Of a stretch of 64,000 nucleotides of DNA, positions 4,109 through 62,941 are shown in pieces. The stretch is taken from assembly GCA_043228905.1 (NCBI GenBank), contig JBHGNT010000016.1, positions 7,006,001-7,070,000 of the forward strand, read 5' to 3'. A program made the position numbers and the translations under genes. The stretch comes from Azolla caroliniana (lineage: Eukaryota; Plantae; Polypodiophyta). Below the pieces are notes generated by a model that searched no databases, had not been told where the DNA came from, and saw only the letters and a list, made by a program, of their open reading frames with translations. The first letter of the stretch is position 1. Each line of letters begins with the position of its first letter.

Positions 4109-7100
4109 CATAATGTTCCTGTTGTGATCAATCAAGTTCTCTTGGAACTATTTAGACCCATAATCCATTGTTAATATAGGACAAGCGACGCAAATTTATA
4201 TGGGAAGAAATGTCTTACCTGGAGCGGTGGTGGAGAGATGCAACTGATGCTGAGAAGAGGGATTTTATCGGACTAGTTGAAAATGGTCAGCTTGAAATTG
4301 TTGGAGGTGGCTGGGTCATGAATGATGAGGTATTTTATGCAAATAAGTATGTCGTTTATATCATTTTAATTGTAAGCATACTATTCAAAGCTAGCAGTAT
4401 ATCTATTTTAGGTCAAAAGTGTTAACATACGCGAACTGCACGCACACAGACTTGAGGATAGACAATCATTTTATTTCTATTGATCTGATTCGTATCCTGT
4501 GTTTGTTGTACCATATTTCCTCTAGTTTATCATTATTCTTAGCATGCTTATGGAATGGTTTGTTGTATGTTGTTTCTCATTCAATTGAATCTGAATTTGT
4601 CTTTGGACGCATAAGTTTTTGATTAGATGTTCCAATGGAAATCATGGGAGCCATTTATATGAAATATATCAAAGGAGATGCAAGATTTTTTTCTGATTGA
4701 AACTGAAAAAAATGATAAATTGGATCATGTTTCAACAACGGGCTTATGCGACATTTTTCTTCTAGCTGGCATACAACCAAAACATCTTTATCTATCTTTA
4801 AATGGATATGGAAGTCTATTGATGTACAGTATCTTTTCTGGAAGACTTTTGCTTATAAATGGCATTCATTTGTGTTAATTAAGGGTTTGATAAAGTAAAG
4901 TTGTTGTTCAAAATCCAATTGCTGGAAGAGATTTAACTAACATGTATTCATGGATGTGACAGGCTAATTCTCATTATTATGCCATCATTGAACAAGTATG
5001 TTGTTTTCATTAGCTCATTTTATTGAACTTGTAATGATTATGATTCTTTCCCTAATAGAGTAATTTAATGATTTGTTTTATTCTGCAGATCACTGAGGGA
5101 AACCGTTGGCTTCATGAAACAGTTGGTGCTGTTCCAAAAAACTCTTGGGCTATAGATCCCTTTGGGCACTCTCCAACTATGGCATACCTTTTAAAAAAAA
5201 TGGGCTTCGAAAATATGCTCATTCAAAGGACACATTATGAAGTGAAAAAGGTTCTTGCACAAGAAACAAATCTGGAATTCTTCTGGAGACAAAGCTGGGA
5301 TAAATACAATAAAACTGACATATTCTGCCATATGATGCCATTCTACTCTTATGATATACCACATACTTGTGGTCCAGAGCCAGCTATATGTTGTCAGTTT
5401 GATTATTGGCGTCTTCCTGGGTTTGGCTTGGCAGCACATTGTCCATGGGGCCAGGACCCCCAAAGGATAACTTTGGATAATATCAAAGAGAGAGCTGAAA
5501 AATTATTGGATCAATATAGAAAGAAATCTACCCTATACAAGACAAATACGCTTCTTGTACCGCTTGGAGATGATTTTCGGTATATTACAATTGCAGAAGC
5601 AGATATTCAGTTTGAGAATTATCAGAAGATCTTTGATTATATTAATACACATTCAAAGTTCAAGGCCGAATTGTCCTTTGGGACTCTTGAAGATTACTTC
5701 ATGGCAGCTAAGGTAGAGATGGCAGCCCAGAGAGGGAAGGTGAAATTTCCTTCTCTTTCCGGCGATTTTTTCACATATGCTGATCGACAACATGATTATT
5801 GGAGTGGGTATTATGTCTCACGCCCATTCTATAAGTCAATAGATCGTGTTTTGGAAGAAACCTTACGGGCAACAGATATTTTATATTCTCTATCATTGGG
5901 TTATTGTCAACCATCAAATCAAAGTAGTTTTCCTTTTCCATCAAGTGAGAAGCTAGTAACCGCTCGTCGGACACTTGCATTATTTCAACATCATGATGGC
6001 ATAACTGGCACTGCAAAAAACCATGTGGTTATTGATTATGCAAGAAAGATGCAATCAGCACTTCTGGATTTGCAAAGGTTTATGGCACAAGCTATGGCTA
6101 TCATGCTTGGTAAAGGCTCTTTGGAAGGCATGTGTAGCGATATGGATTTGGATGTATTCACCCCAGAGAAAGATCACAACTCACATGATATGCCACCAGT
6201 TAAGAAGGTCATCAATTTAACAAATGATGAAGTACAGAGAGTGGTGGTTTACAATCCCCTTGAAGAGCCAGTAAATCAGGTCATTATGATCCTTGTGGGG
6301 AGGGCAGATATATGTGTAATGAGTGCTGAATGGGAACCTATTGAAAGTCAATTAAGTCCTGAATGGATGATTGATAAGAGTGGCAAAATCATGACTAGTG
6401 GCAAACACCGTTTGCATTGGCTAGCACGAGTTCCACCAATGGGTATACAAACATTCTTCATTTCAGTTTCAAAGGATTCAATGTCATGCAATGCTGCAAA
6501 GCATGCACAGGTGAAGTTTTCTAACACTCCTGGTACAATATTCTCGTGTCCTTCTCCCTATGAATGCATTCAAATAGAGGAAGATGTAGTTGAAATATGT
6601 AACCAACATCAAGCAATGACCTTCTCAGTTCAAGATGGGCTCTTGAAACGCTTGAAAATTCGTAAGGATGGTCATGGAATTTCATTGGAAGAAGACATTG
6701 CGTTCTACTCTAGTGTTGGGAGTGGAGCTTATCTCTTCAAACCAGTTGGAGAAGCTAAATCTATTGTCAATCCAGGTGGTTCAATGGTGGTTACTCTTGG
6801 GCATCTAATGCAAGAGGTATTTACACATCCTAAAACCTCATGGAACCCTTCTCCAGTTTATCGGAGAGCACGGCTTTACACAGCAATTGATTCTGTTCAA
6901 GCTTTCATGGCTGAAATAGAGTACCATGTGGAGCTGCTTGGTTATGACTATAATGACAAAGAGCTAATTGTCAAATTCGAAACAGATCTCGATACTGAAA
7001 ATACCTTCTTTTCTGACCTTAATGGGTACCAAACCATAGCAAGAAAGAATCGAGAGAAGATCCCTCTCCAAGGAAACTACTACCCGATGCCATCTCTTGC

Positions 7101-7839
7101 ATTCTTGCAAGGATCACAGGGGCAAAGATTTTCACTGCACACTCGTCAAGCACTTGGCGTAACAAGCCTGAAAAGTGGCACTCTTGAGGTAATGCTTGAT
7201 AGGAGGTTAACAAGAGATGATGACAGAGGTATGGGCCAAGGTGTGCTTGATAATCATCCGATGGACATTACTTTTCATATTCTTCTAGAGAGAAATATAA
7301 CATCAGTGCCAGACATTGTTGCATCAACTCCGCGTGTGCCCTCTTTGCTTTCACATAGAATCTCAGCTCAGCTGAACTATCCTATGCATTCTTTTTTCAG
7401 CCGAATTGAGAGCACATCAGCTGCTCAAACAGCCCTTCTTCAGAAGAAGTTTGCACCATTGGCAGTGAACTTCCCGTGTGATTTGCATGTAGTAAGCTTC
7501 AAGGCAGTGAGGTGTGTTGAAAAGATTGAATATGCTCTGACTTTGCATCGCCGAGGATGGGATAATTCGTATTGCCGGAAAGGGCAGACCCAATGCATCC
7601 GAATGTCGGATGAAAATATCAGTGCATTTGATATCTTTGACCATCTGACTGTGTCTTCGGCAAAAGTGTCTTCATTGAACTTGCTACATGATAATGCTAA
7701 AGATTCAAGACACAGTATCGTGAGTAGGAAACAAGGAGGAGGTTTTGCTGATGAGAAAGTTTTCCTTAGTTTGGCTCCTATGGAGATACAATCATTGAAG
7801 CTTAAATTTTCAATGAACCAACAAGTAGGCTTGGTTTAG
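2891..7839 (+). CDS. GMII: Golgi alpha-mannosidase II (GH38); exons 2891-3373, 4180-4329, 4963-4995, 5089-7839; ~1138 aa
   Basis: Type II TM anchor. GH38 motifs VVPHSHNDPGW, FIWEEMSYLERWW, GGGWVMNDEANSHY, WAIDPFGHS, PLGDDFRY and FQHHDGITGT. All introns are GT-AG and preserve the frame. Confidence 0.96.
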
Positions 7840-10609: not shown

Positions 10610-12726
10610 TTTGTGAAAACACACAATTATATATTAATGAATGTGTGTAAAAAACACTACTTACAATGGGTGTGACAATGGAGTATGGTTACCCAATAAC
10701 TACATCACATGGGGTAGTGGAACATGTTGAATTGCCAATAGGCAAGACGAACACTCCACTGAGGAAAGAATTTCCACTTGCTCCAATAAAGAAAATTGCC
10801 ACATTAGTTCTCCCTTCAACTTTCGTAGATATGCTTTCACTCCATGTCTACCATCAAATACTAAAGTGTTGCGCATGTTCCAATTATGACGCAATCCCTA
10901 ATATCTCAGAAATAGAAAAACGATCTCCATCTCGGATTTTAGACCAACCTGTGTAAATTGTGTAAACACCCACTGTCTAGGTGTTAAATAACATCGTGAT
11001 AAATCTTGCCAAATTAAAGAAATGTAACTCCAAATCTGACAAGCAGTTGGACATTGTATAAATCAATGAGTACTATCTTCCATTTGAACAACGCAAAAGA
11101 AGCAATTACCCATTCCTAGTCCACAACGCTTTAGAGCTAATCCCAAAGGCAACTCTCCAATCAAAACTCTCCAAATGAAGACCTTTGCTACACAAGTGAT
11201 AATTTAGAATGCCAACTATGATGTAAGATCGGCCACAACGACGTTTGACCCTGTAAACACCAATCAATCCACGATTGTTCTCTTGTTTGTAGAGGTAAGG
11301 GACCTTGCATCAATGCAATATTTTGTAGTTGTTGCCAAATAAATCCATAATTAGGCAAGATGCGTAATAATTGTCGCGTTTCAACAAACTCCAAAATTCT
11401 TTGAGATGGAGCCTCAACTATATCTCCCACCTCTTTGACCCCCAAACGAAATAAACGATTACATTGAGAGCACAATATCTCCTTTCTTGGCCAACATAAT
11501 AACCGAGAAGACAATGCTCTCTACTAGATGATGGTTTCCATACACATAACAAGAGTGCTTCTTGCCATGAGGTAACCAAGTGTTGAACACATGAAGAGCC
11601 CGGAATCCTAAGTGAAATACATCCATTCAGTAATTGCCACCATGTAGCCTTTATCGTTGACCTCCCATGTGTTAAACCCTTGTTGTCAATGAAATATTGA
11701 ACAATAGATATCCATGGTTGTGCATTTGAAAACATGTCTTCTAATAATGAAAATCTACGAGCCATCATATGCATAAATAAGTTCAATATTCTAGCTCCCC
11801 CCCAAGCGCTTAGGGCTTGCTAGATGATTCCAGGCAACCCAAGTGATTCCCATCTTATCCATCTTCTTCCACAACAAATATTGAAGAGGTTGCAAAACAT
11901 AATGCAAAACCTTCTTTGTCCATGGCAACAATGACAAGTAATATAATATCACAGGTTCCATAATACATTGTACAACCTTCAAGCGTACATGAAACAACCA
12001 AGATTCTGACTTCCAATACATGAACTTATCCCTCAATTTACTAGATATCCATTCAATCAATTGACCATTTGTAACATTCATTCCTAATGGATAGCCCAAG
12101 TGTCGCAATAGAGCCTTTCTTCTCCATGGATCCTTACCATCCTAAACATTCCAAATCCCTTTCAGTACATGATATGAGATTAGACTTCCTCCAATTAATA
12201 TGTAATCCGAAAGCCAATGCAAATTGGTTCCATACAAGCATCCCCTTCTCAAGATGATCTCATGATGCTTGTCAAAACATGAAAGAATAATCAACCAAAT
12301 CTTGTGCTACTAGTTGCCCTCTAGACGAAAGGTGTAGACCCACAATGTCACCATTTGTTGCAAGCCTTGATAGCATCACTAACAAGGGATGTGTAACAAT
12401 AGCAATCAACAATGGGCTAAGAGGACATCCTTGACAAACGGATCTTGTGAGGGAAATATCTGATGTAACTCCCCCATTAAGCATTACTTGAGACATCACA
12501 TCTTGTCCTAATAAAAATATGAGGCGAGACATACGAGGTCCAAAGCCCATTGTATGCATTAATCCAGAAACAAAGGACCAATTAACATGGTCATAAGCTT
12601 CCTCCAAATCTAATTGCACCATAATCAATTCTTGATGAGTGTTTCGAGCATAATCTATGGCCATTTGAACATTCAACACATTATGCCATTTGAATATTCA
12701 ACACATTATGACCATTTGACCATTCA
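10610..12726 (-). mobile_element. L1-clade LINE, 3' segment (RT core to C-terminus), degenerate
   Basis: QLDLEEAYDHVNW, RSVCQGCPLSPLL, RHLGYPLG and WVAWNHLASPKRLGG motifs in broken ORFs. Confidence 0.88.
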
Positions 12727-15700
12727 ACACTCTAGAATATTCTAGGTCATCCTAGAATGTAGAGTAATCTAGAAGGTTTCTAGAGTATTTTAGAAGGTTC
12801 TAGTGTATAGAACACTCTAGAACATTCGAAGTTATTCTAGAATGTAGAGTAATATAGAATATTCCTATGATATTAGATTATATATTCTAAAAACTATACA
12901 TATAAGAATGTTAATACAATGGTTAAGGATTTGACATGTATACAACAAGATCGTAGGTTCAAATCCTTTCAAGGCATGATGTGAGTGTCATCATGACACT
13001 ATCTCCCTTCTTCGACGACACGTCTCACGGGTTGTAGGGTTTGTATTAGGACCTGGTTTATGAGAATATTGGTGATGAAATGCAGTGACCATATCCACAA
13101 CATTGGAAAGATTTGCGGCAGGTTCCCATGTTCGATCATTGGGGGTATAGCCTAGCCAATCGACCCAATAATACAGCTTGTTGCACACGATTTTAGAATT
13201 GAGAATGGCAGCGACCTCAAATTTGGGTCCATCCAAGAACTCAACTGATGGGGGGGGTGTCGTAAGACGACCCGGAATTGAACTTGCAGTATAAGGTTCC
13301 AAAAGGGATACATGAAACACCGGATGAAGACGCATGTGTAGAGGGAGGCCAAGACGAAATGCAACATCACTTATCTTACCAGTGATCATGTAAGGGCCAA
13401 AATGTTGGTAATCCAATTTATGACAAGGCCGAGTGGTCTTGATGTTGTGTTGGAGAAGCCATACACGATCCCCAACGCAGAACTTTTTTTAGGAGTCTAG
13501 GCGATGACGATCCGCAAGCCTCTTGTGTGTAGCTTGAGCATCATGCAAATTGTGGAGAATGGTAGCATGAATTTCTTGGAGGCAACTAAGACAATCCTCA
13601 ACAACAGGGTTGGTAGGAACGTGTGGATGCACATTCATCGTCCACTGAGGATGACAACCCGTATTTGCGAAAAATGGGGAATATCTTGTAGAAGAATGGG
13701 CTAAGCTGTTGTAAGAGAATTCAACCAAGTGCAAACAATCAACCCAATCACCTTGTTGATATTTAATGAAACAATGAAGATATTGCTCCAAAGTATGTTT
13801 GGTACGCTTAGTTTGGCCATTAGTCTCGGGATGATAGCCCGAAGAAAGCTTAACCTAAATGTGGAGAAGTTTGAGCATGTGCTTCCAAAACTTTGAGATG
13901 AATTGTGGACCATGATCACTAATAATATCATCCGGCAGACCATGATGCCTAAATACCTCCTGCTTAACGAGATCGACCACCTCTTGACTAGTAATAGACT
14001 TCGTACATGGCAAGAAGTGTGCCATTTTGGTAAGTTGATCCACAATGGTGAGAATTGCATCAAAACCTTTTGAAACTGGGAGATCAGTAATGAAATCCAA
14101 GGATATAGACTTCCAAGGATTTTCCGGAATGGGAAGTGGTTGTAGTAAGCCATAGGATCGGTGTTGAGGATTCTTTGATCGACAACATATATCACAGCTG
14201 CGAACATACTCCTCAACAAAATGATGAAGGCGGGGCCATCAATAGTGTCGAGAAATTAATTCTAGAGTTTTGCGAACTCCAAAATGACCAACCATTGGTG
14301 AGTCATGGCAATGTTGTAAAACTTGTAGTCGTGGGGGACCATCAGGAACATACAATAGGTTTTGCCGAAACAAAAAACCACCATGCCAATAGAACTGATG
14401 ATAGTCATTACGAGAGTTTTTCGACTGTGAGCAAGAAGCACGATCTGGGACGATATGATCCAAAACATCCTTGGTGAATTCATCAGTGGCCTTATGATCT
14501 CGAATGGAATCAAGAAGAGTGGAATCTTCAAGCATTGGTATGGCATTAACTACCATTAATCGTAGGTGATTAGGACCTTGGAAAAGGATTTGTTTTTTAT
14601 GCTTGAATGCAGCTTCCTCGGGACGAAGTTCCATATAAGAGCACCGGGAAAGAGCATCTGCTTTGCCTTGTTGCATCCCAGGGCGATATATGATGACAAA
14701 GTCGAAGTGAGTAAAAAATTGCGCCCACTGGGCTTGTCGCCGACTCAAGACTCGAGCAATTTGAAAATATGCTAGGTTCTTATGATCGTTGTAAACAATG
14801 ATCCGTTGAGAAGAACCTTCTAGAAAATGTCGCCATTGTTGAAAAGAATCGGTTTGCCATATTCTCATCAATATATTCCCACAAAGTCTTTAGCTCTATA
14901 GGTGAGAGAGATTATAAATTGGGCCATGTGGAGGTTCTTTCCCTGGTTGTAAGTCAATAGGGCAGTCGTATGGCCGATGCTCCGGCAATGTATTGGACTT
15001 CACCTTGTCAAAGACATCTGAGAATTCCTTGTATTTCTATGGTAGTTTAATGTCCGCTTCATGTAAAGTGGATGATGGAGTTGCTACTATTGCGAAGACC
15101 AACATGGCCTCGTTCCCCCCTTCCTCACATAACTGTCGTAGAGAGATGGTCAATAACTCAAGGGATCTAGTATCACATGTCGGAGAGAGGGATGCGAGGT
15201 TTGTGCTTTTTTCCTAGGTCTCCTCAATCATCCAATCAATCTTCGGGTTATGGATTTTAAACCAATGGAGACCACATACTATTGGGTGTTCCGGACTGCG
15301 AATAATCATGTTGAAAGAGATTATGTTTGCCAAATTGCCAAGAACTATCCGAATTGGCTCAGACCCCTTGACTATATCTCCTGATGCTATGGGACAACCA
15401 TCAATGACTCCTACGGCTACAAGGCTTGGGAGCTTATTCAAGAGGATGTTTTGTGACAAGGCATATTCACGATCCATGAAACAAGAGTTGGCTCCAGAAC
15501 CTAGGAGGGCAGAGGCTAGGACTCGATGACATGTAAATGTGGTAAGCTCGACTTGTGCAGAAAAAACTCGACTCACGTCATTTGATGAAGTGGAACCACG
15601 ACTAGGAACTAACTCTACATAGCTGGGATGGTCCAACCAAATGGCTCCTAGTTTGGCCGGACTTACTCGTTTAACACATCCTCTAATTGGCTCAAGACAT

Positions 15701-17264
15701 CGATTCTATGTTCATGGCATGGACTATGAGGCTTACTTATGTTATTAGAAGTAACAATGGAACTCGAATTAGGGTTGTCATGGGCACTTACTTGGTATAC
15801 TTGACATCTAGGTTTATGTGGACAATTTACAACTATATGTCCTAGACCGCCACAATACATGCATAGGCAATGCGCTCGACGACGTTGCTTCTCAGCATCT
15901 GATAAAGGCCCACGACGTTGTGTTGACTCTATTTCCATCAGAGTTGGGCCATTCCTTGTAATGGGTCTGGAAACTTGTGGAGGTGTTGCGACTACGGAAG
16001 CGTAACATTTGTTGGCGCTCAGAACGACGCTCAAATAGGCGATTATCACATCGCACAGCTCGACTAATGGCCTCTGTAAGTGACTTCGGATCTTCAAGGA
16101 AAGGAAGAAGAAGATCTTTGACATCATTTCACAAACCTTGACGGAATTGATCCATTAAGGCTGCCTCATCCCAAGGGATATCGCATGCCAAGAGACGAAA
16201 ATCAGCTGCGTAAGCCGATGCGGGATGATCTCCTTGTCAAAGCCTTCGGATCTTGTTTATTGTTGTCCTAGTGCTGTCGGTGTTTCCGAAACTAGCTTGA
16301 AACTCCTTAACACATGCCTCGAAATCCTCTGACAATGGCGATTTCTTCTCGAGAAGTGGTGTGAACCATGCTAACGTCATACCGCATAGCAAAGTTCCCA
16401 CTAATCCCACACGAGTAGCGTCAATTGGATATCGATTGGGATGTAGCTGAATAACCAGACAAACTTGATTCAAAAAGCCTCGAAATAAAGACCTTGTACC
16501 ATCAAACTTGGGGGAGGCTAATCTTGGGTTCTTTAGGGGATTTCTGAGCCCATGGCGCTTGTTCTCATAATGATAATATAGTTGCCTCGAGTTGGTGAAC
16601 CCTTTTGATAATTCTTCATACTGTTGAGCTTTTTCGGCGCTCATATGTTTTAGGTCTCCAAGTAGCCTTTTATTTTCATTCTCTAATGCCACACATTTAT
16701 TCGTGAGCATGTCGAGCTCAGAAAGAACACGCATATACTCTTGTTTGCTCACAGACTCCATAGTTTATGAGGGGAGAGGAGAAGGAAGAAGAGAACTTGT
16801 TAGGGTTTGTAGAAGAGGAAGAAATGAAAAAAAAAAGGTTCAAACTGTCAAGAGAGAGAGAGAGAAAGAGAAACATTGTATTGTAGAGTAAAATGGATTG
16901 TAAGGAGTAGGCAATATAGTGCTACAAAATGGCGTTGAACCAATTTAGGTTTGGGATGATTGATAGATCCCTATTTATAAGTAATAGAGAACACTCTAGA
17001 GTATTCTAGGTCATCCTAGAATGTAGAGTAATCTAAAAGGTTTCTAGAACTTATTCTAGAAGGTTTTAGTGTATAGAACACTCTAGAAAATTCTAGGTTA
17101 TTCTAGAATGTAGAGTAATATAGAATTTTCCTATGATATTAGATTATATATTCTAAAAATTATACATATAAGAATATTAATACAATGGTTAAGGATTTGA
17201 CATGTGTACAACAAGGTCGTGGGTTCAAATTTTTTTGAGGCATGATGTGACTGTCATCATGACA
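12727..17264 (-). mobile_element. Ty3/Gypsy chromovirus 'A' (Tcn1-like): gag-PR-[RT deleted]-RNaseH end-INT-chromodomain
   Basis: 5' LTR 16846-17264 (TGTCA...TGACA). Truncated 3' LTR 12727-12998 preceded by PPT GAAGGGAGATAG. Gag CCHC CMYCGGLGHIVVNC, protease LLGSGANSCF, integrase MDFITDLP and chromodomain YYWVDWLGY...TWEP. Confidence 0.93.
12905..12975 (+). promoter_or_regulatory. tRNA-like Pol III A/B-box cassette in the Gypsy A 3' LTR (second copy at ~17171-17240)
   Basis: A-box-like TAATACAATGG at 12912-12922 and B-box GGTTCAAATCC at 12956-12966, 44 nt start to start. Confidence 0.6.
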
Positions 17265-18394: not shown

Positions 18395-18640
18395 TATCAC
18401 GAACAAGTATAATAAAGCAAAGCAAAGACAAGACTAGAACGCAAGAGAGAGGAAAAGAGCAAAAACTCAACTTATGGAATCCGTAACTGTTGTTGTTCAC
18501 CTTGATTAGAATCAAGGTGCACTTGAGTATTTATACAAGAAGGTAGGGCTATGTAAGCCAGCTAGAAATAGAGTATGCATGAGGATGCAAACTTCCAATG
18601 TTCAATCTACATTACATGAAGTTGGATCTTATATAAGGAT

Positions 18641-18712
18641 GTATATGTAGCTCAATTGGTAGGGTTGCCCAATAGAGACCATGAGGTCTTGGGTTCAATC
18701 CTTACCTTCTTC
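18641..18712 (+). promoter_or_regulatory. tRNA-like Pol III A/B-box cassette in the Gypsy B LTR
   Basis: A-box TAGCTCAATTGG at 18648-18659, variable-loop-like GAGGTC, and B-box GGTTCAATCC at 18692-18701. Confidence 0.75.
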
Positions 18713-21700
18713 TGTGGCATATGTCTATGACATTATCCTCCTTCTAAGGCCGCCTCTTAACACCCGAACGGGTTATGAGGGTATCGTTGATGAAAAGCGT
18801 GAATTGCCTCTAGCACATTTTGTAAATGTGTAACTGGTTCCCATGTGGTGTCCGAAAGAGGGTAACCTTTCCATGAGACCAAGTATTGAAGTCTTCGGCG
18901 ACGCAAGCATGAGTCGAGGATCCGAAAACCTCGTACTCCTCACCTATCGATAATTCCACGAGCGACGATGGAGGAGGTTGTCGTCCCGGCATGCGAGAAG
19001 GATGGTAGGGTTCAAGGAGAGAGACGTGGAAAACATTGTGAAGCCGAAATGTGGGGGGAAGCGCTAACCGAAAGGCAACTGGGTTAACGCGCTCGAGGAT
19101 ACGGAAGGGGCCTAGCTTTTTGTAGTCAAGCTTCGCGCAAGGACGGGTGGTTGCGATGTGGCGACGTAGCAACCAAACCATGTCACTAACTGCGAAGGTC
19201 GGCACTACCAAACGATATCGGTCAGCGTGAGCTTTATATTGTTTGCCGGCGGCACGAAGCTCAAGGGAGAGGTCACGATGGACATCTTGTAAGGTGTGAG
19301 GATGCCTCTCGGTCGACGGATTGACGGAAGTCTCCGGAATGGAAATGCTGAAACGAGGGTGGAAACCGTAGTTTGCAAAGAATGGGGAAACCTTAGTGGA
19401 GGCATGGATACTATTATTGTAGGCAAATTTCGCCACGGTAAGGAAGTCCACCCAATCATCTTGTTGGTAGCTGACTGTACACCGAAAATATTGTTCAAGG
19501 ATTTGGTTGACTCTTTCGGTTTGGCCATCAGTTTGAGGGTGATGCGCATTAGAAAAGTTCATGGAAGTCCCGAATGTCTATAGAAGTCGGCGCCAGAAGT
19601 GGGAGATAAATTGACGACCTTGATTAGAAGTGACATCCTCAGGGAAGCCCTGTAATCAGAAGACATTTTTCAGAAAAAGGTCAGTTGTCTCCTCCCCCGA
19701 AATGGTTTTCGAACATGGGACAAAGTGAGACATCTTCGAAAATTGATCGACGACCACTAGCACCGTGTCATGGTAACCGACCCGAGGAAGGTCGGTGAAA
19801 AAGTTCATGGAGAGAGATGCCCAAGGTCGACTGGGAATTGGAAGTGGGTGGAGAAGGCCGTATGGACAGTGGTGAGCCGCTTTGGAGCGAGCACAAACGT
19901 CACAAGTTTTGATAAATTCTTTGACCAATTTCCAAGATTGGGGACGCCAAAACCCCCGAGACAGTAACGTTAGCGTTTTCGTGACCCCAAAGTGTCTGAT
20001 AAGAGGATCATCATCGCAAGTTTGTACTACTCGGATGCGATGTGTGTCAGTTGGTACGTAAAGGAACTGATTACGATAGAGTAGCCCATCCTGAGTTGTA
20101 AAGTGACTAAGATCCGAGCTTTGCATTTCCTGGGATGGGTTGTTGAGGTGCGCCATGATGTCAGTAGCGAAAGGGTCTGACGTGGCTGATTGGGCGATCT
20201 TGTTGAGAAAGGAATCATCATGCACCATATAGGTTGCGAACATGTGGAGTTCATAGGGCCGCAAAAAACAATGTGATAGCTGAGAATATGCGTTGTCACC
20301 TGGGCGTAGTGCAAAGTCGAGTTGCCGAGAGAGAGCATCTGCTTTCCCATGTTAAACATCGGGTCAAAACAAGATTTCGAAGTCGTAGTCGGCGAGAAAA
20401 GATGACTAGCGAGTCTGCCTCCGATTCAACATACGAGTGGTGGTGAAATAGATGAGATTCTTGTGGTCGGTCAACACCTGAATACGATGTTGGGCCCCAG
20501 TCAGATAGGTTCACCATTCGACAAAGGCCGAGATGATAATTGCAAGCTCCTTGTCATAGACCGGATATTTGATTTCTGGGCTTATAAATTTCCGAGAGGA
20601 GACGGCGACCAAATGCAGGGTGCCATCGTCGTCGGGCTGAGACAAGACTGCACCTATGGCAAAGTCGGAGGCGTCAATTTCAACCTAGAAAGGGCAGGCG
20701 GGGGCGGAGAGAAAAGCTGCTTTGAGGGCATTAAAAGCATTGAGTGTCGCGAGGGTCCAAAGAAATGGAGTATCTTTCTAGGTAAGTTGGATGAGATGTT
20801 GGACTAGGGATGAAAACCCGTCTATAAATCGTCTGTAAAAATTTGCAAGACCAAGAAACGATTGTACCTCTTTCAACCAAGTCGGGAGAGGCCAATCAAT
20901 GATTGCCGCTACCTTGCCTTCATCCATTGTGATCCCGGTAGGTGAGATCATGTACCCCAAGAATTCGACAGAGGTTCTATCGAATTTGCATTTCTCACTT
21001 TTGGGGAAGAGCCCATATTCCTAGAGTTTGGTGAGAACCAGCCGGACATGTTGTGTGTGCTCCTCCCAGTTGGTAGAAAAAACTAGGATGTCGTCAAGGT
21101 AGATGCCCACGAAATGATCGAGATAGTCTCCAAAAAGATCGTTCATCTTGTGTTGGAAGACAGCTGGAGCATTGGTAAGGCCGAATGACATCACTTTGTA
21201 CTCGAAATGTCCATAGCGTGTCCAAAAAGGCAGTTTTCCACTCGTCCCCAGGCTTGATGTGCACCAAATTGTAGGTGCCCTGAAGGTCGATTTTGGAGAA
21301 GATGTGCCCAGTTTTGAGTCAATCAAGGAGCGTTGGAATTAAGGGCGATTACGAATCGTAACTTTGTTGAGACCCCGATAATCGACACATAAGCGTAAGG
21401 AGCCGTCCTTCTTTTTGACAATTAAGATTGGTGCCCTAGCCGTTCATTTGGAGGGTTGAATAAAGCCCTTCGCGAGATTCTCAGCCAGATATGTGCGGAG
21501 ACCTTCAAGTTCGGGTTCAAATAACCCATATATAGGATTGAATGGGGGATGCGCGCCATCTTGGAGTTCGATTAGGTAATCGTAGGGGCGATGAGCCGGG
21601 AACCGATCGACATTCCGCTTTTCGAAGATCTCAGAAAAATCGCTATATCAAACGAGTAAATTGCTGACAGGAATGGTGATGTCCCCCGACACAACGGCCA

Positions 21701-22123: not shown

Positions 22124-22529
22124 ATAGTTGTTAAAAACACGTATTCTACGTTTAGAGTACGTTTTAGTATACTCTGAAGTATTCTACACGTATTCTACGT
22201 TTCAGAACTGCCGTTCTTTAAATTTTGACGTATTCTACGTATTTAACAAGTATTTATCATTTCAAAAAATATTTTCTTTTTTTTGAAAAAAAAAATCTTT
22301 AAATTTTAAGAAGTGTTTAAGGTATTTTACAAGTATTCTACATGTATTCTAAGTATTCTACACGTACTCTAAGTATTCTAAACGTATTCTACACGTACTC
22401 TAAGTATTTAACGCACTTTATCTATAAAATACATATTCTAAGTATTTAAAAAAAAGAAGTTAGAATACTTGTAGAATATTTAGAATATGCATTGTACGCG
22501 TATTTTATGCTAAGTATTTTACAACAATG
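22124..22529. mobile_element. hAT-type MITE inserted in Gypsy B RT
   Basis: TIRs CATAGTTGTTAAAA / TTTTACAACAATG, degenerate 8-bp TSD GTTTGAAG / GTTGGAAA, and internal (A/C)GTATTCTA repeats. RT sequence resumes on both sides. Confidence 0.82.
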
Positions 22530-23796
22530 GTTGGAAAAATAACTAGGATGTCGTCAAGGTAGATGAACACGAAATGATTGAGATACTCTCGAAAAATATC
22601 GCTCATCATGTGGTTGAAGACGGTCGAAGTGTTGGTAAGGCCGAATGGCATCACTTTGTACTCGAAATGTCCATAACGCGTCCGAAAGCCCGTTTTCCAC
22701 TCGTCCCCAGTCTTGATGTGCACCAAATTGTAGGCGCCCCGAAGGACGATTTTGGAGAAGATATGCCTAGTTCGGAGTCGATCGAGGAGTGTTGGAATTA
22801 AGGGCAAGGGATAACGATTACACATTGTAACATTGTTGAGACCCCGATAATCACCACATAAGCGTAAAGAGCCATCCTTCTTTTTGACAAATAAGATTGG
22901 TGCCCTGACCGGTGATTTGGAGGGTTGACGGCTTCCCTGAAGATGTCACTTCTGATCGAGGTCCTCAATTTATCTCCCCTTGTTGGCGCCAACTTCTATG
23001 AACTTGTCAACCGAGCACCACCCTCAAACTGAACGCCAAACTGAAAGAGTCAACCAAATCCTCGAACAATACGTCGGGTGTATAGTCAGTTACCAACAAG
23101 ATGATTGGGTGGACTTCCTTGCCATGGCGAAAATTGCCTACAATAATAGTATCCAATGTCCATGCTTCAACTAAGGTTTCCCCATTCTTTGCAAACTATG
23201 GTTTCCGCCCTTGTTTCAGCATTTCCATTCCGGAGATTTCCGTTAATCCGTCGGCTGAGAGGCGTGCCCACACCTTACAAGATGTCCATCATGACCTCTC
23301 CCTCGAGCTCTATGTCGTTGACAAACAATATAAAGCTCACGTAGACCGTTATCACTTGGTCGTGTCGACCTTTGCAGTCGGTGACATGGTTTGGCTGCTA
23401 AATCACCACAGTAACCACCCATGCTTGCGCGAAGCTTGACTACAGAAAGCTAGGCCCCTTCTGTATCCCCGAGCGCGTTAACCCAATCACCTTCTGGTTA
23501 GCACTTCCCCCCACATTTTGGCTTCACAATGTTTTCTACGTCTCTCTCCTCTAACCCTACCATCCTTCTCACATTCCGGGGCGACAACCTCCACCGCCGC
23601 CACCCGTGGAATTATTGACAGGTGAGGAGTACAAGATTGACCGGATCCTCGACTCCTGTTTACGTCGCCGAAGACTTCAATGCTTGGTCTTATGGAAAGG
23701 TTACCCTCTTTCAGACGCCACATGGGAACCAGTTACACACCTTGCGTGTTAAGAGGCGGCCTTAGAGGGGGGATAATATCATAGACATATGCCACA

Positions 23797-23868
23797 AAGG
23801 GAGATAGGGATTGAACCCAAGACCTCATGGTCTCTATAAGGCAACCCTTCCAATTGAGCTACATATGC
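23797..23868 (-). promoter_or_regulatory. tRNA-like Pol III A/B-box cassette in the second Gypsy B LTR
   Basis: Minus strand reads TAGCTCAATTGG (23861-23850) ... GAGGTCTTGGGTTCAATCCC (B-box 23817-23807). Confidence 0.75.
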
Positions 23869-26800
23869 ATTCTTGTACAAATCCAACATCATGTAGTGTA
23901 GATTGAACATTGGAAGTTCCTAGCTTGCATGCATCCTCATTGAACTAGCTTGCACACATTCTCCTACATTCTCTATTGCATGCATCCTCATGCATACTCT
24001 ATTTCTAGTTGGCTTACATAGCCCTACCTTCTTGTATAAATACTCAGGTGCACCTTGATTCTAATCAAGGTGAACAAGACCAGTTACAGATTCTATAAGT
24101 TAAGTTCTTGTTCTTTTCCTCTCTTTTGTTTTCTAGTCTTGTCTTCGCTCTGCTCTATTATACTTGTCCGTGATAATTTGTTCACCATGCCCTCTTCTTG
24201 CTACCATGTCGGGCTCCGTCAACAACCTAAACCAAGTCATGGCAGCCTTGCAACAACTTTAGCTAGAGAATGAAATCCTTCGGGAATCATTACGAGAGTT
24301 GTAATGCGGCACTTCAAGAAAACCACCACCCGCCCAGTCACAACCACCATTGGCACCTAGCATGACCACGTCCTCTTCCCATCCATATGTCCTTGAACCA
24401 ACCATTAGCCTACCAGACAAATTCAATGACACGAGGGTGTATCTTCACGGCTTCATCAACCAAATTCGGCTTATCATCTGGTTACAGCCCTAACAGTATA
24501 CTAAAGACTTTTTTCGGGTTCGGCTTGTTGGCATGGTTCTCTCCAGGCCAGCGCAAGCGTGGTTTGCACCCTTGATCGAGACCTCATCCCTCTCTTAGAA
24601 AACTTCATCGCTTTCATTGAGGAGGTCGAAGCGACATTTGGCGAGACAGACCGGCGACGAACAACACTCACAAAGCTTTATTCTTTTCAATAAGGCTCAC
24701 GTCCAGCCTCGGTCTATGCCTCAGAGTTCCGTCAGATTGCTTGCAATGTCAGTTGGGATGACCAAGCCCTATGCGCCCATTTCCTTCATGGTCTCTAAAA
24801 TGATGTCAAGACTCTTCGCTCAAACTTCCCGGAACCCACATCATCGTTTCAAGTAATCTCCCAAGTTGTCCAGTGTGACAATCGTCTCTTCGAATTTCAT
24901 CAAGAAGAACGAGGTACTCATGGGTCTCAGGCTTCTTCCGAAAACGCATCAATCGCCAGGCCCTACTTGTCTCCCATGCAAACCTTACCATCACCCAATG
25001 ATACCCATACCACGATAGAGGTTGATTTCCATACCCCGATGGAGATCGACCACACTCAATTCCAACTACTAACTGAAGCCCAACGCCAACATCGTTTGGA
25101 CAATGGACTCTGTCTCTATTGTGGCAACCCCAGCTATGTCATCTGTGGCACCAATTCCATCGTGCACGTCTTGTGGAAGTTCGTCAACAACAGGAAAACG
25201 ACCAAGTTCGACTGCAGTAGGAGCCATGTTGCTGGTCACTTCCGTTACTCACCTTCTCCATGCTCCTACAAGTCCATTCAGCCATTAGGAGGGTTCTCTT
25301 TGCAAGTACATCTTTGTTTGGTTCGACTTCAATACATTCTCATGCCTTGCTCGACTCTGGAGCATCAACTTGCTTTATCGATAAATCGTTTGTCCACGCA
25401 CATAATATCCACACCGTCCGCACATCACAACCCATATCCATTGACGCAATCGGCGGTCGGGATCTCTCTTCGGGGGCGGTTATCAAAGCTACTCTCCCAT
25501 TGGTATTTCAAGTCGGGGTGCATCAAGAGGAACTCATGTTCTACCTCATCGCAACCCCTCGACATTCAATTGTGTTGGGGCTATCTTCGTTGGAGATACA
25601 CAATCCGACGGTGGATTGGTGTAACCACTCCATCACTTTTCCATTAAGGCCAATTCCTACTAGGTCACGACACTCTCTTGATTCCGTTGCGGTCGAGTCC
25701 GGTTTGGTCTCTAGATTGGCCGTTGTGTCGGGGGACATCACCATTCCTGTCAACAATTTACTCGTTTGATATAGCGATTTTTCTGACATCTTCAAAAAGC
25801 GGAATGCCAATCAGTTCCCGGCTCATCGCCCCTACGATTACCTAATCGAACTCCAAGATGGCGAGCATCCCCCATTCGGTCCTATCTATGGGTTATTTGA
25901 ACCCGAACTTGAAGGTCTCCGCACATATCTGGCTGAGAATCTCGCAAAGGGCTTCATTCAACCCTCCAAATGAACGGCTAGGGCACCAATCTTATTTGTC
26001 AAAAAGAAAGACGGCTCCTTACGCTTATGTGTCGATTATCGGGGTCTCAACAAAGTTACGATGCGTAATCGTTACCCCCTACCCTTCATTCCAACGCTCC
26101 TCGATCAACTCAAAACTGAGCATATCTTCTCCAAAATCGACCTTCAGGGCACCTACAATTTGGTGCACATCAAGCCTAGGGACGAGTGGAAAACGGCCTT
26201 TTCGGACACGCTATGGACATTTCAAGTACAAAGTGATGTCATTCGGCCTTACCAACGCTCCGGCTGTCTTCCAACACAAGATGAACGATCTTTTTGGAGA
26301 CTATCTCGATCATTTCGTGGGCATCTACCTTGACGACATCCTAGTTTCTTCTTCCAACTGTGAGGAGCACACACAACACGTCCGGCTGGTTCTCACCATA
26401 CTCTGGGAATATGGGCTCTTCCCCAAAAGTGAGAAATGTGAATTCAATAGGACCTCTGTCGAATTCCTGGGTTACCTGATCTCACCTTCCGGGATCACAA
26501 TGGATGAACGCAAGGTAGCGGCAATCACTGATTGGCCTCTCTCGATTCGACTGAAAGAGGTACAATCGTTTCTTGGTTTTGCAAATTTTTATAGACGATT
26601 ATAGACGAGTTCTCTTCCCTAGTCCAACCTCTCATCCAGCTTACCCGGAAGGTTACTCCATTTCTTTGGACCCCCGTAGGACACAATGCTTTTAATGCCC
26701 TCAAAACATCTTTTCTCTCTGCCCTCGTGTTAGTCCACCCCGACCCCACCCGCCCTTTTTAGGTTGAAACCGACGCCTCCGACTTTATATAGGTGCGGTC

Positions 26801-29300: not shown

Positions 29301-30186
29301 TTATGCTCAATTCCGTTGACAGTAGAGAGCGCAGCAATAAAAACAAATTCGCTTCTTCTTCTTCCTCTCTCCACTCTTGCTTTTCTCTCTCTCTCACCCA
29401 CACTCAAGACCTCTGGTTGTTTTTGCCCGTGAGTCACTATGCATATATGTAAGTCGAGTGTATCGAGGGCGTGTACAAACTCAAATCCTTGCTATAAATT
29501 AGACAATATTATATCTAGTGTTGTGACGAGTACACGATAAGAGCTCGAGAAACGAGATGGGTAACATTATACTAAAATTACCTTGTTAAGCACTCGCATG
29601 TAGTCGTGTTGTTTTGCTCATTAATACACATGCATATGTATCCGTATCAATACGATTTAGGGTGGACGATATAGTACACAAAGTTTGGGAGCAAAGTTTG
29701 GGAAGTGTTTCTTGTTTAATCTATCGAGTCTCATTTCATGTCTAAAATATTGAGAAATGATGCAACATTACCACTATAAGCTTAAATGAATTTAGTAGAA
29801 GCTTCAACTATTCTGATTACCGCGTTCAATACTTCAACTTGGTGTTTTATTGAATGGGGCAAATGGATGAGACATTCATAAGTGCAGTAAGTTTAGAAAG
29901 GTTGGATGATGGATTGAGATTTATATAAATGCATGGGTTCATGGTGAACTCAATAGATGGATGGTGAGTGTAGTGTTGCATCATACACAATGCAAATCAA
30001 CTTGATCTACTACGGGTTGGGCATGTTAAGTCATTTTTCATGCTTTGTCTGCTAAATATTATCTTCTGTTAGGAAACATAGTTGATTTGAACCATCAGCC
30101 TTGAATTTGGTTCATTTTGAAAAGATGTTTCTTCTAAAGCCCGACTAACCAACATGATCTCAAAGCAGTTGTTTTTAACCCTTGAA

Positions 30187-58847: not shown

Positions 58848-58940
58848 TGTTAAGAATTAGGTAAGTAATTAAGCAAGGATTAAGTAGTACCTAATTATGT
58901 GACTAGTTAAGCGCGGAAGATTATGTGATATGTGTGTGTA

Positions 58941-59035
<95 letters not shown>

Positions 59036-62000
59036 CACTTATGAACAACACAAGATGGGGGATGAGTAACTATATCAAATTAGCATTATCATCATCAAAT
59101 CCAAAAATACCCACAATGAGGTATATATACATCTCATGTGCAAAGGTGCACATGTGTGAGTAAAATATAGGTACTAATGTGTAAGTCCTATATTAAATGT
59201 ACTTAGGAGTGGAGGATCTAGAATATCCCACTTAAGTACAAGGTCCTATTTAAAGTGTTATAGTCAACACTTCTAACTAGATTCTATCTAGGTAACTACG
59301 AAGTTACATTGTTGACTAACTAACTAAACTAAGTTGAGCTCGATCTCTCAACACGCCCCCTCAAGCTCAAGTGTGAGGCGTCCAACATCCGCCTTCGTCG
59401 GCTTTGTGTGCTTCCGTCCGGCCTTCGGCTTTCTTCGCCATGGCAATCTCGGTTCCTCCCCCTCAAGTCGGTGACGAAGGCTTTTAGTGTGTGGCCGAAG
59501 GTCGACTACTTCCACCCATCGTGGGTTACGAGCCGCTTCGGTGGAGCTCTTGGGTTCTTGTTCGGCCGTTACCTTCATCGCGAAGGCGTAATGATGGGCC
59601 AGATACTTGTTGTAGCCGTGTCAAGTGACGGGGTTCTTAGCTCTAGATGAGCGTCAAAGTTTTTCGCTCGCCGATGTGAGTGCCTTCTTTACTCTGGGTG
59701 TACGCATGATGGGTACACCAAACTCATTGTCTAGTGAGGGAGCCGATTAATTCGAATCATTGTCGTTTGGGTGGTTGACTTCGTATTCAGGCATCTTACC
59801 TTTGCCTTTGTCCAAGTTCGTTCTTGGCCGCGATGTGCTTGGGTCACGTGGGGGCTCTTGTGGCCCACTAAGCTTTGCCATAATCCGACTTTCTTCGAAC
59901 ATGTGTTCGAAGCGATCTCCATCTTCTACCTCTTGTTCGACGTAATCTGCATCGAGCGTAGTCAGAGTCGAAGAGGTCTCTGGTGCGTACCAAGATGCGT
60001 ACTCGTCGAAGACTACGTCTCGACTTACGCGAACTTCTCGCGTCGACGGGTTGTAGCACTTGTACGCCTTCTTCTCGGACGAGTATCCTACGAGGATACA
60101 TCTCTCCGACTTCGCGTCGGGCTTCTGTCATTGTTTGTTCGGGATGCGTACATTCACAATGCTTTTGAACACTTTGAGATGCGACAGGATTGGCTTCCTT
60201 CCAACAATGAGCTCATATGGAGTTAGCTCATGCACTCCATTCGTGGGGCATCGATTCATGAGATAGATGACCGTAGATGCCGCTTCGGCCTAATAGAAGT
60301 TCAACATGTTTTTCTCATGTAACATGGCTCGTACTACCTCAAGTATTTGCCGATTCTTCCTTTCGGCTACTCCATTTTGTTGGGGTGTGTGTTGGCATGA
60401 GAATGCTCTACGAATGCCTTCACTTTGGAGGTAGGAGGTGAATTCATCGGAGAAGTACTCCTTGCCTCCATCCGATCGTAGGCATTGAATGTGCCGACCG
60501 GTTTCTTTTTCGACTTGCCCCTTGAGCTTTTGGAAGTGAGAGAACACTTCACTCTTCTTCTTCATTGGGTAGATCTAAGCGTAGCACGAGTAGTCATCGA
60601 TGAAGGTTATGTAGTATCGGCATCCGCCGATCGTCGGCGTTTGAGCCGGTCCCCATACATCCGAGTGTATGACGTCGAGGAGGCCTTTGCTTGCGTAGCT
60701 CTCCTTCGGGAATGGGAGTCGATGTTGTTTGCCGAGTTGACACGCTTCGCATAGTCGGTCGACTCGTTTCGACTCGAATGTCAGAAGTCCGATGACGACT
60801 CCCTTGGTTTGCATCGCTCGTAGCCGTTGGAGGTTTATGTGGCCGATTCTCTTGTGCCACAACTCGATGCTTGTCTCGGTTTTGAGACCTTTGGCGTACA
60901 TTGCCGATTTCACCTCGTTCAAATCGAGGAGGAGCATTTAGCCTTCTCTCCGCCCCTTAGCTACAACTCGACCATCTTTCTCGATGAAGCATCCTTCTTT
61001 GTTGAAGTGGACTTGCATGCCTTGCTCCACGATTTGGCCGACCGAGACCAAATTCTTTGTTATTGTGGGCACATGCAAGACATTCTTGATGCAAGTTTGC
61101 TCGCCTTCTTTCCCGAATGGGACATTGCTGATGTGCCGAATGGGGTGCGTTGTGTCGTCTCTCATCTCTATGAAGCCGGGTCGATCCGGGTACGCAAGTC
61201 ACGAAACCACTCTTCGTGAGATGTCATGTGATGTGAGGCGCCAGAGTCGACGAACCACACGTCTTCCGAGTTGGAGGTGCTTGCGGAGTTAAAGGCCGTC
61301 ATAGAGTTCGCTCTATGCCTCGTTACGAACATTCCTCCACGGTTGCTGTAGTCAAAATTTGGGGCGTAATTTGTAAACATTTCACTACGATCGTCGTAGT
61401 CGGAGTTCGACGCGTGATTCATGAACATTCCGCTATGGTTGTCGTGGTCGGAGTTCGATGCATGGTTTGTGAGGTGTCGACTTGTTGAAGCCGACTCACT
61501 TCTCTTTTTCCGACACTTTGCCTCGTAGTGGCCGATTTTGCCACAATAATTGCAAGTTGCGGGCCTCGTTTTCCGACCATGTTCGGCGTGGAAGCTCCCC
61601 ATTCTTCCGAAGGTTCCTCGATGGCTTCCGTGAAGGTTTGATTTCCCTTCGTGTGATGGGTCAAATTGACCTCTTTTACCGCCGTGATCTTCTCCTTGGC
61701 CACCGTCCGAATTCGAGAAGAACATTTGTCCTTCTGACGTCTTGCTTTTGGTTCGGACAGACACGGTTCTCTTTGACCAATAACATTGATTGGAGGTCAA
61801 AGAACGAAGGAGGGTTTTCTCTCGCCAATATTGCTGTCCGTAATGGATCGAATCGTTGTGCGAGGCCGCCGAAGCATACTTGGAACCATCTCGTCTTCGT
61901 CGACGTTTATTTTGATGGAGCCGAGCGAGTCGCAAATGCTCTTGATCTTGGCGGTGTAGTCCGACACGGACATGTCTTTTTGCCGAATGTTGTTCAAATC

Positions 62001-62941
62001 TTGTCGGAGTTGAAGCTTTCGGGTGGTAGTGTTGGCGGCGAACATTTTCTTTAAGTTCGCCCATGCTTCTTTAGGCGTCTCGGTGTCTCGAATGTGGCTA
62101 AGCATGTGGTCGTGGACCCATGTTGCCAAGCAATACATGACTCGACTCGTCACTTGCTCCCATGTTGTGTAGTCGGCGTTCTTTGAGTCGGGTCGATTTT
62201 CTTGAGCGTCGTTGATGTAGCTCCAATACCCTTGGTCGACAAGGTATTGGGTCATCTTGTACTCCCAAGATGAATAATTGCTCCGGTCTAGCTTTTCACT
62301 AGGGAGCGAGCTACCTATTTGTGTGTTCATGTTGATTGTGTCTTCTCTTCTTTTGTTTTTCTTCCTTTGATCACGTACACGTGCTACGTAGTGGCACTAC
62401 GGTAGCCGATAGCTGGATTTTATCGTCGGCGTCTCGAACACACAATCACGGAGTCAGATGGGCTTAGTGGAATTTCTAAACCACATGCTCTGATACCATG
62501 TTAAGAATTAGGTAAGTAATTAAGCAAGGATTAATTAGTACCTAATTATGTGACTAGTTAAGCGCGGAAGATTATGTGATATGTGTGTGTATGTGTGTGA
62601 GAGGAAGAGAGAGAGAGATATATATACTTATGAATAACACAAGATGGGGGATGAGTAACTATATCAAATTAGCATTATCATCGTCAAATCCAAAAATACC
62701 CACAATGAGGTATATATACATCTCATGTGCAAAGGTGCACATTGTGAGTAAAATATAGGTACTAATGTGTAAGTCCTATATTAAATGTACTTAGGAGTGG
62801 AGGATCTAGAATATCCCACTTAAGTACAAGGTCCTATTTAAGGCGTTATAGTCAACACTTCTAACTAGATTCTATCTAGGTAACTACGAAGTTACATTAT
62901 TGACTAACTAACTAAACTAAGTTGAGCTTGATCTCTCAACA
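58848..62941 (-). mobile_element. Ty1/Copia LTR retrotransposon, RT/RNaseH-deleted derivative (4.1 kb)
   Basis: LTRs at 62499-62941 and 58848-59353 (TG...CA), TSD GGGAT/AGGAT, Met-tRNA PBS TGGTATCAGAGC (62498-62487) and PPT TGAGGGGGCG. Encodes gag with CNYCGKIGHYEAKC, protease FVDSGASHHM, WHKRIGH and integrase LRSDGGKEY...QNGVAERKNR. Confidence 0.95.

Follow-up and report, generated by a model that had tools for sequence, protein, structure and literature searches.

What is a tRNA-type promoter signal doing in the LTRs of a fern retrotransposon, antisense to the element and at its outer edge? The question is raised by a chromovirus of Azolla caroliniana found in the window, by which is meant the whole stretch of 64,000 nucleotides that was analysed. 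The consensus of the B box is RGTTCRANNC. The core of this box is given as GGTTC (PMC10886601). TFIIIC is described as binding A and B boxes that lie 30–60 bp apart, most strongly via the B box, and as loading TFIIIB upstream (PMC11346459, PMC6101501). The locus bears on how a promoter stays usable in an element that aims for silent chromatin; heterochromatin can be a target of elements with a chromodomain, as is described for Skipper-1 (PMC6101501).

The element and its cassette

The window element codes for gag, protease, RT and integrase and is a protein-coding, self-priming chromovirus (Table 1). The chromodomain (PF00385) that the W1 copy has lost is found on its close relatives P0001–P0004. 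The LTR copies W1 and W2 are in inverted orientation, with 306 of 337 aligned letters identical, and thus come from two different copies of the element, within a nest that has been rearranged, and not from a single one. W2 is in tandem position, with a polypurine tract (PPT) on one side and the gag start on the other. The preliminary description had found boxes in both LTRs, which stands. Between 18395 and 27014 the nest contains two or more copies of a single family, in opposite orientations; RT pieces are duplicated, an AT-rich insert lies at about 22125–22530, and the LTR at 23777–24175 is shared in tandem.

Table 1. Positions of the cassettes in the window and of the parts of the elements that carry them
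Feature	Positions	Strand	Remarks
A box TAGCTCAATTGG, W1	18648..18659	+	antisense to element
tRNA variable-loop relic AGGTC, W1	18684..18688	+	
B box GGTTCAATCC, W1	18692..18701	+	antisense to element, 31 nt from LTR tip
A box TAGCTCAATTGG, W2	23850..23861	-	antisense to element
B box GGTTCAATCC, W2	23808..23817	-	antisense to element
Cassette of a second, distant chromovirus family (W3)	12912..12965	+	A-like motif 12912-12922, exact B box 12956-12965, antisense; in 3' LTR remnant 12726-12998
Cassette of the W3 family in 5' LTR	17178..17231	+	LTR 16846-17264, minus; B box with one mismatch
3' LTR of minus-strand chromovirus copy (W1)	18395..18732	-	PPT junction
Second LTR copy (W2)	23777..24175	+	between PPT and gag
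Polypurine tract of W1 copy	18736..18745	-	
Pol II TATA box of W1	18528..18535	-	sense to element, LTR position 198
Pol II TATA box of W2	24035..24042	+	
Self-primer sequence in R of W2	24069..24077	+	complementary to PBS
Self-priming PBS (W2)	24178..24186	+	directly before gag start
C-terminal part of integrase, W1	18810..19577	-	Tf2-like SH3 domain; decayed copy, chromodomain lost

The arrangement first given for the antisense boxes was confirmed in both copies: A box and B box start 44 nt apart, and the B box ends 31 nt from the LTR tip. The D stem pairs at 4/4 positions, two of them G-U, and the acceptor and anticodon arms do not fold (4/7 and 2/7, 2/5 and 2/5, versus a background of 3.7 and 2.8 by the same sliding procedure), both as originally reported. 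When the first 100 nt of an LTR are shuffled, an exact B box comes up by chance at a rate of about 0.4%. A profile of the window LTR family also matches real tRNA genes in L001–L006 (E 1e-6 to 8e-4). A lone B-box match at window position 30093 has no A-like motif with it.

The W3 family (12726–17264, minus), whose 3' LTR is cut short, is far from the window family in the integrase tree. Its putative self-primer target at 16941 (minus) itself fits the B-box pattern, in sense.

A tRNA gene or tRNA mimic, the latter among the roles first suggested, was ruled out by ARAGORN, Rfam and folding. ARAGORN finds 0 genes in the window and Rfam gives no tRNA match at E<=10; neither a cloverleaf nor a shared fold is kept, and there is no covariation. 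Also set aside was a hairpin of rod-like shape seen in the window's cluster; it is 92% paired, with z from -2 to -4.5 for some members, but displays no two-sided change. Such a hairpin also folds on both strands in L007, L028 and L072, and is not claimed.

The element has a Pol II promoter of its own. A TATA box in sense is found at LTR position 198–272 in 10/10 LTRs examined, and the antisense cassette is therefore not the promoter of the element. The PBS that follows the LTR is complementary to a stretch of R about 30 nt past the TATA box. Such a self-priming PBS, with a match of 9–12 nt to R, is found in 20/24 fern-type loci with a gag match, and it occurs in three versions, each covarying with its target in R. 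Variants that change together with the R target are seen in L026, L027, L036, L017 and L019. Accordingly, no tRNA primer is needed. Self-priming is described as a mark of the Tcn1/Tf1-Sushi group (PMC6317226).

Distribution among related elements

Relatives were fetched by integrase alone and not by the box. Of 444 confirmed stretches the best 80 were taken, which gave 79 loci. An LTR start could be located in 64 of the 79; the 15 others were dropped, as were rows L063, L032, L038 and L029, which had no junction, were broken or were too short. With the two window copies, 62 LTRs were counted in all. Fern-type and outgroup LTRs were separated by the PPT junction, again not by the box, and were clustered at 70% identity. 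A single contig series is the source of all fern-type relatives except L043.

An exact antisense B box is present in the first 100 nt of 31/40 fern-type LTRs, representing 8/14 clusters, and in 0/22 outgroup LTRs (9 clusters). There are 0 matches to the B box deeper inside the antisense LTRs (9079 nt) and 0 on their sense strand (13060 nt). The LTR clusters are 41–68% alike, versus 47% for shuffles. Some of the clusters are related (L011 with L026, L014 with L018); thus the 14 are not independent and stand for 5–7 lineages. The cassette is also found in the 5' LTRs of L008, L012, L020, L023 and L025, which bears out the proposal that it belongs to U3 as a built-in module and is propagated together with the element.

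A quick integrase tree, built without Tcn1 reference sequences, has two box-bearing subclades in which 31/34 rows are exact and the other three have one mismatch. A third subclade of five rows (L017, L019, L039, L074, L029) has decayed box relics only. L043 and L045 are also without a box. Contig coverage of the box-less subclade reaches 160–297, and the box is therefore not essential for amplification. LTR type is discordant with the integrase tree, which points to U3 exchange between lineages.

Two further collections were searched. The viral contig collection has no relative and no match to an LTR stretch, and the B-box flank matched only real tRNA-Thr genes there. One search of the genome contig collection gave no match and another gave 11 distant loci, four of them with a candidate LTR start, and the box is in 0/4 of these.

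Conservation of the boxes

Seven non-overlapping LTR pairs, 28–47% diverged outside the boxes, were compared. Only 1/56 defined B-box letters differs, versus 20.3 expected (binomial p 4e-10). The free positions N59–N60 within the same box differ at 5/14 letters, and the adjacent stem letters at 22/49. Over the 15 distinct rows of the window's cluster, conservation is 0.969 for the 15 box letters versus 0.82–0.84 elsewhere (permutation p<=0.0003). The boxes are also unchanged between LTRs that are homologous outside them, i.e. L011/L027, L014/L018, L020/L023 and L016/L030. The prediction that the boxes are more conserved than neighbouring U3 is thus borne out both in the window's cluster and in the seven pairs. 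Among the variants listed from two contig mappings, one of which mixes SINE and LTR contigs, no change falls on a defined box letter except A to G at R15; these variants serve as subsidiary evidence.

The A box is a full match in the window's cluster and is degenerate elsewhere, where only T8-R9, GG and A21 are kept. By motifs that were defined after the data had been seen (T8-R9, GG, A21), a D-loop GG lies 33–46 nt before the B box in 8/8 representatives, with T-R 9–10 nt ahead of the GG and an A behind it. A-to-B spacing is 43–55 nt, which is inside the 30–60 bp optimum described in PMC11346459.

Other parts of the tRNA likeness are not kept. The T stem pairs at 0–3 of 4 positions versus a background of 1.5. 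In L020 the B box is exact although it lies only 6 nt from the LTR tip and the tRNA 3' end is gone. The boxes remain fixed while spacer, stems, flanks and 3' end drift, a patchy pattern that fits a DNA motif bound by protein and does not fit a folded RNA or a duplex with one tRNA. The variable-loop motif RTY is kept in 9/9 representatives versus 6% in controls. It sits outside the usual B box, and a plain TFIIIC site leaves its retention unexplained.

The retained RTY motif is among the points that favour an annealing site, at which sense genomic RNA would anneal to a host tRNA along its T and D arms. Ty3, likewise a Ty3/gypsy element, has anti-tRNA T-arm and D-arm sequence in U3 as part of a bipartite PBS (PMC5371799), and the orientation of the fern cassette fits. 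The Ty3 site serves tRNA priming, however (PMC5371799), whereas the fern clade self-primes. In addition, positions 59–60 and 49–51, which would be inside any such duplex, are free to vary, with three states at 59 within one cluster, and variation tracks the box consensus and not any one tRNA. Pairing with a tRNA is therefore a most improbable explanation. Overall, the cassette appears to be kept clade-wide under selection, in several diverged families of fern self-priming chromoviruses.

Origin of the cassette

Many of the public DNA contigs that align to L028 match the cassette and then depart from the LTR. In runs X1, X2 and X5, 27–50 contigs per break point (6–24 in X14, a run flagged as probably DNA) depart just 5' of the tRNA-like part; the departing 5' ends share a few letters and then run into mixed CT-rich flanks (agreement 0.44–0.68). 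A further 18–30 contigs depart near the 3' side of the cassette, and depth is about fourfold higher over the cassette. These contigs outline a free repeat, with a tRNA-like head and unrelated flanks in many copies; the loose ends span 30 letters, and within them neither a tail nor a target-site duplication was seen. A decayed free copy of the cassette also lies inside the integrase gene of L041 (796–853), with a near-direct repeat on both sides.

The repeat is an observation in its own right: L028:3832–3895 together with X1, X2, X5 and X14 represents an abundant, short SINE-like repeat with CT/GA-rich flanks that shares the cassette, and no description of it was found.

Since this free repeat shares the cassette of the window family, an origin by SINE exchange is likely; the cassette likely came from a tRNA-derived SINE head, or by exchange with one. 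SINE head and LTR would then be linked by recent sequence exchange. As the window cassette is common to the free repeat, part of its tRNA likeness may be recent inheritance. A template switch onto tRNA or SINE RNA just after plus-strand priming would place the piece antisense beside the PPT. A simple SINE insertion had been named as the finding that would speak against an integral cassette. Its sign, a TSD or tail of the cassette's own, is absent from the LTR alignment; part of the scenario, a SINE source, holds for the origin, through the free SINE-like repeat, and does not hold for the later retention.

In a rival explanation the cassette is a passenger: the start of U3 would in each family be a head acquired from a SINE or a tRNA, and selection would have acted in the SINE and not in the LTR. 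The likely route would be the template switch just after plus-strand priming at the PPT, from which the observed location and orientation would follow exactly. The contigs that leave the LTR at the cassette edges with fourfold depth, the decayed copy in L041, the discordance of LTR type with the integrase tree and the success of the box-less subclade are all consistent with capture. However, the boxes stayed fixed after any capture in LTR pairs that are homologous outside them, and stems and 3' end erode where the B box does not. Passenger status is thus judged unlikely.

Possible roles of the boxes

The reading preferred here is that several diverged fern families keep antisense A and B boxes of tRNA type at the outer U3 end as binding sites for TFIIIC, the head of a tRNA-derived SINE having probably supplied them. 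The boxes are probably bound by TFIIIC, and since the A box retains T8-R9 and G18-G19, TFIIIB may be loaded as well. Bound TFIIIC would stand between the flanking heterochromatin and the Pol II promoter of the element 100–200 nt further in, and the complex could act as a DNA-level barrier or open-chromatin site that shields this promoter from silencing. If antisense Pol III RNA is made at all, it would vary in length and be a by-product. tRNA genes with insulator activity, binding of TFIIIC to ETC sites and extra TFIIIC sites that shape chromatin have been described (PMC11346459, PMC6101501). A barrier or open-chromatin role for the site is given about an even chance.

A different role would be that of an active antisense Pol III promoter whose RNA matters, reading from the 3' LTR over the PPT into integrase and limiting or tuning the element; such transcription may also have founded the free SINE. 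Both boxes are at working distance and a nearly identical head is found in an abundant free repeat. Sequence upstream of the A box is AT-rich, and several members have CAA at -7 to -3, as described for plant tRNA genes (PMC3082873): this motif is found in 2/9 representatives and also in W2, L044, L050, L080 and L015. Foamy viruses provide a precedent, since A and B boxes in their LTRs give rise to Pol III RNAs, in an autonomous retroelement and apart from the Pol II unit (PMC3993851). The foamy virus genes have terminators, hairpins and defined miRNAs (PMC3993851), but none of these is conserved in the fern LTRs. The first T4 lies anywhere from 18 to 340 nt past the B box in 13/16 LTRs and is absent within about 400 nt in the other three; there is no shared fold, and two-sided changes are seen in 0/11 and 0/7 pairs. 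CAA is missing in 7/9 representatives. The case for a discrete antisense Pol III RNA, a product raised in the preliminary description, is weak, as no terminator is conserved, and a function that resides in such an RNA is distinctly improbable.

The boxes might instead serve as a landing pad, where recruited Pol III machinery would direct insertion by Ty3-like integrases to a site just upstream. Ty3 and DGLT-A are described as inserting at about 15 bp from tRNA genes, on the upstream side (PMC6101501). Upstream of the cassette, however, the loose ends consist of mixed CT-rich flanks and not of element termini; no insertion is seen there in the LTR alignment, and any insertion would cut the element's own U3. 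A landing-pad function is very improbable.

The barrier reading can be extended, more doubtfully. Fern chromoviruses might carry at both LTR edges a barrier of the tRNA-gene type, renewed through exchange with SINEs, and so use the Pol III machinery to stay expressible in the heterochromatin that they target; each solo LTR would add a TFIIIC site to the large fern genomes, and a SINE family may have sprung from these elements. This scenario as a whole is speculative. Already under the barrier reading itself, fern genomes would have very many extra TFIIIC sites.

Comparison with known elements

The closest published likeness is to Helenus/TRIMp3 elements, whose LTRs have tRNA-derived sequence with conservation on boxes A and B and no working tRNA; an origin by SINE2 insertion has been proposed, and one of the families is from a plant, Selaginella (PMC10886601). 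Helenus elements differ in being non-coding, about 0.3–1.3 kb long and tRNA-primed, with a cassette that is in sense and is the proposed promoter (PMC10886601). The cassette of Helenus-1_SMo is in sense, whereas the fern cassette is antisense and sits at the tip of the LTR, in elements that code for proteins, prime themselves and have a separate TATA box. According to Kojima (2024), tRNA-like sequence occurs in 'not a few' Repbase LTRs, but that study retained short TRIMs only (PMC10886601).

Cassandra TRIMs also have an internal Pol III promoter in plant LTRs, ferns included, but it is of the 5S type, has a conserved terminator and drives the RNA of a non-autonomous element (as cited in PMC10886601). 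Tcn1 and the Tf1/Sushi group resemble the window element in their chromodomain integrase, self-priming and non-seed plant host; Tcn1 is placed in mosses and lycophytes, not in ferns, and the term 'polymerase III' does not occur in the accessible text of either paper (PMC6317226, PMC2864245).

No description of conserved antisense boxes in LTRs of autonomous plant elements or of chromoviruses was found in the literature listings and abstracts searched. The initial statement that none was known for chromoviruses accords with this, and is qualified by the tRNA-type LTR boxes published for the non-autonomous Helenus (PMC10886601). A conserved TFIIIC site at the LTR edge would extend Pol III cassettes in LTRs from parasitic mini-elements, where they have a promoter role, to autonomous elements with the cassette pointing away and some other task.

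Other features of the window and its relatives

Short perfect inverted repeats are found at the very LTR tip in L007, L016, L020 and at window 12960–12998; the tip hairpin of L020 encloses the B box. Several LTRs have TTCTAGAA-type runs in U3, at 3–6 per LTR (window 16990–17135, L007, L011, L016 and L030). These runs, which resemble heat-shock elements, are absent from the W1, W2 and L014 LTRs.

A Copia-type element is located at window 58848–62941, with an LTR pair at about 58848–59353 and 62499–62941. The window also has an alpha-mannosidase II gene, largely in one open frame of 926 codons (5059–7839). The host genes have their best matches in ferns: the alpha-mannosidase is 66–68% identical to proteins of Adiantum and Ceratopteris, versus 52–55% to those of other plants.
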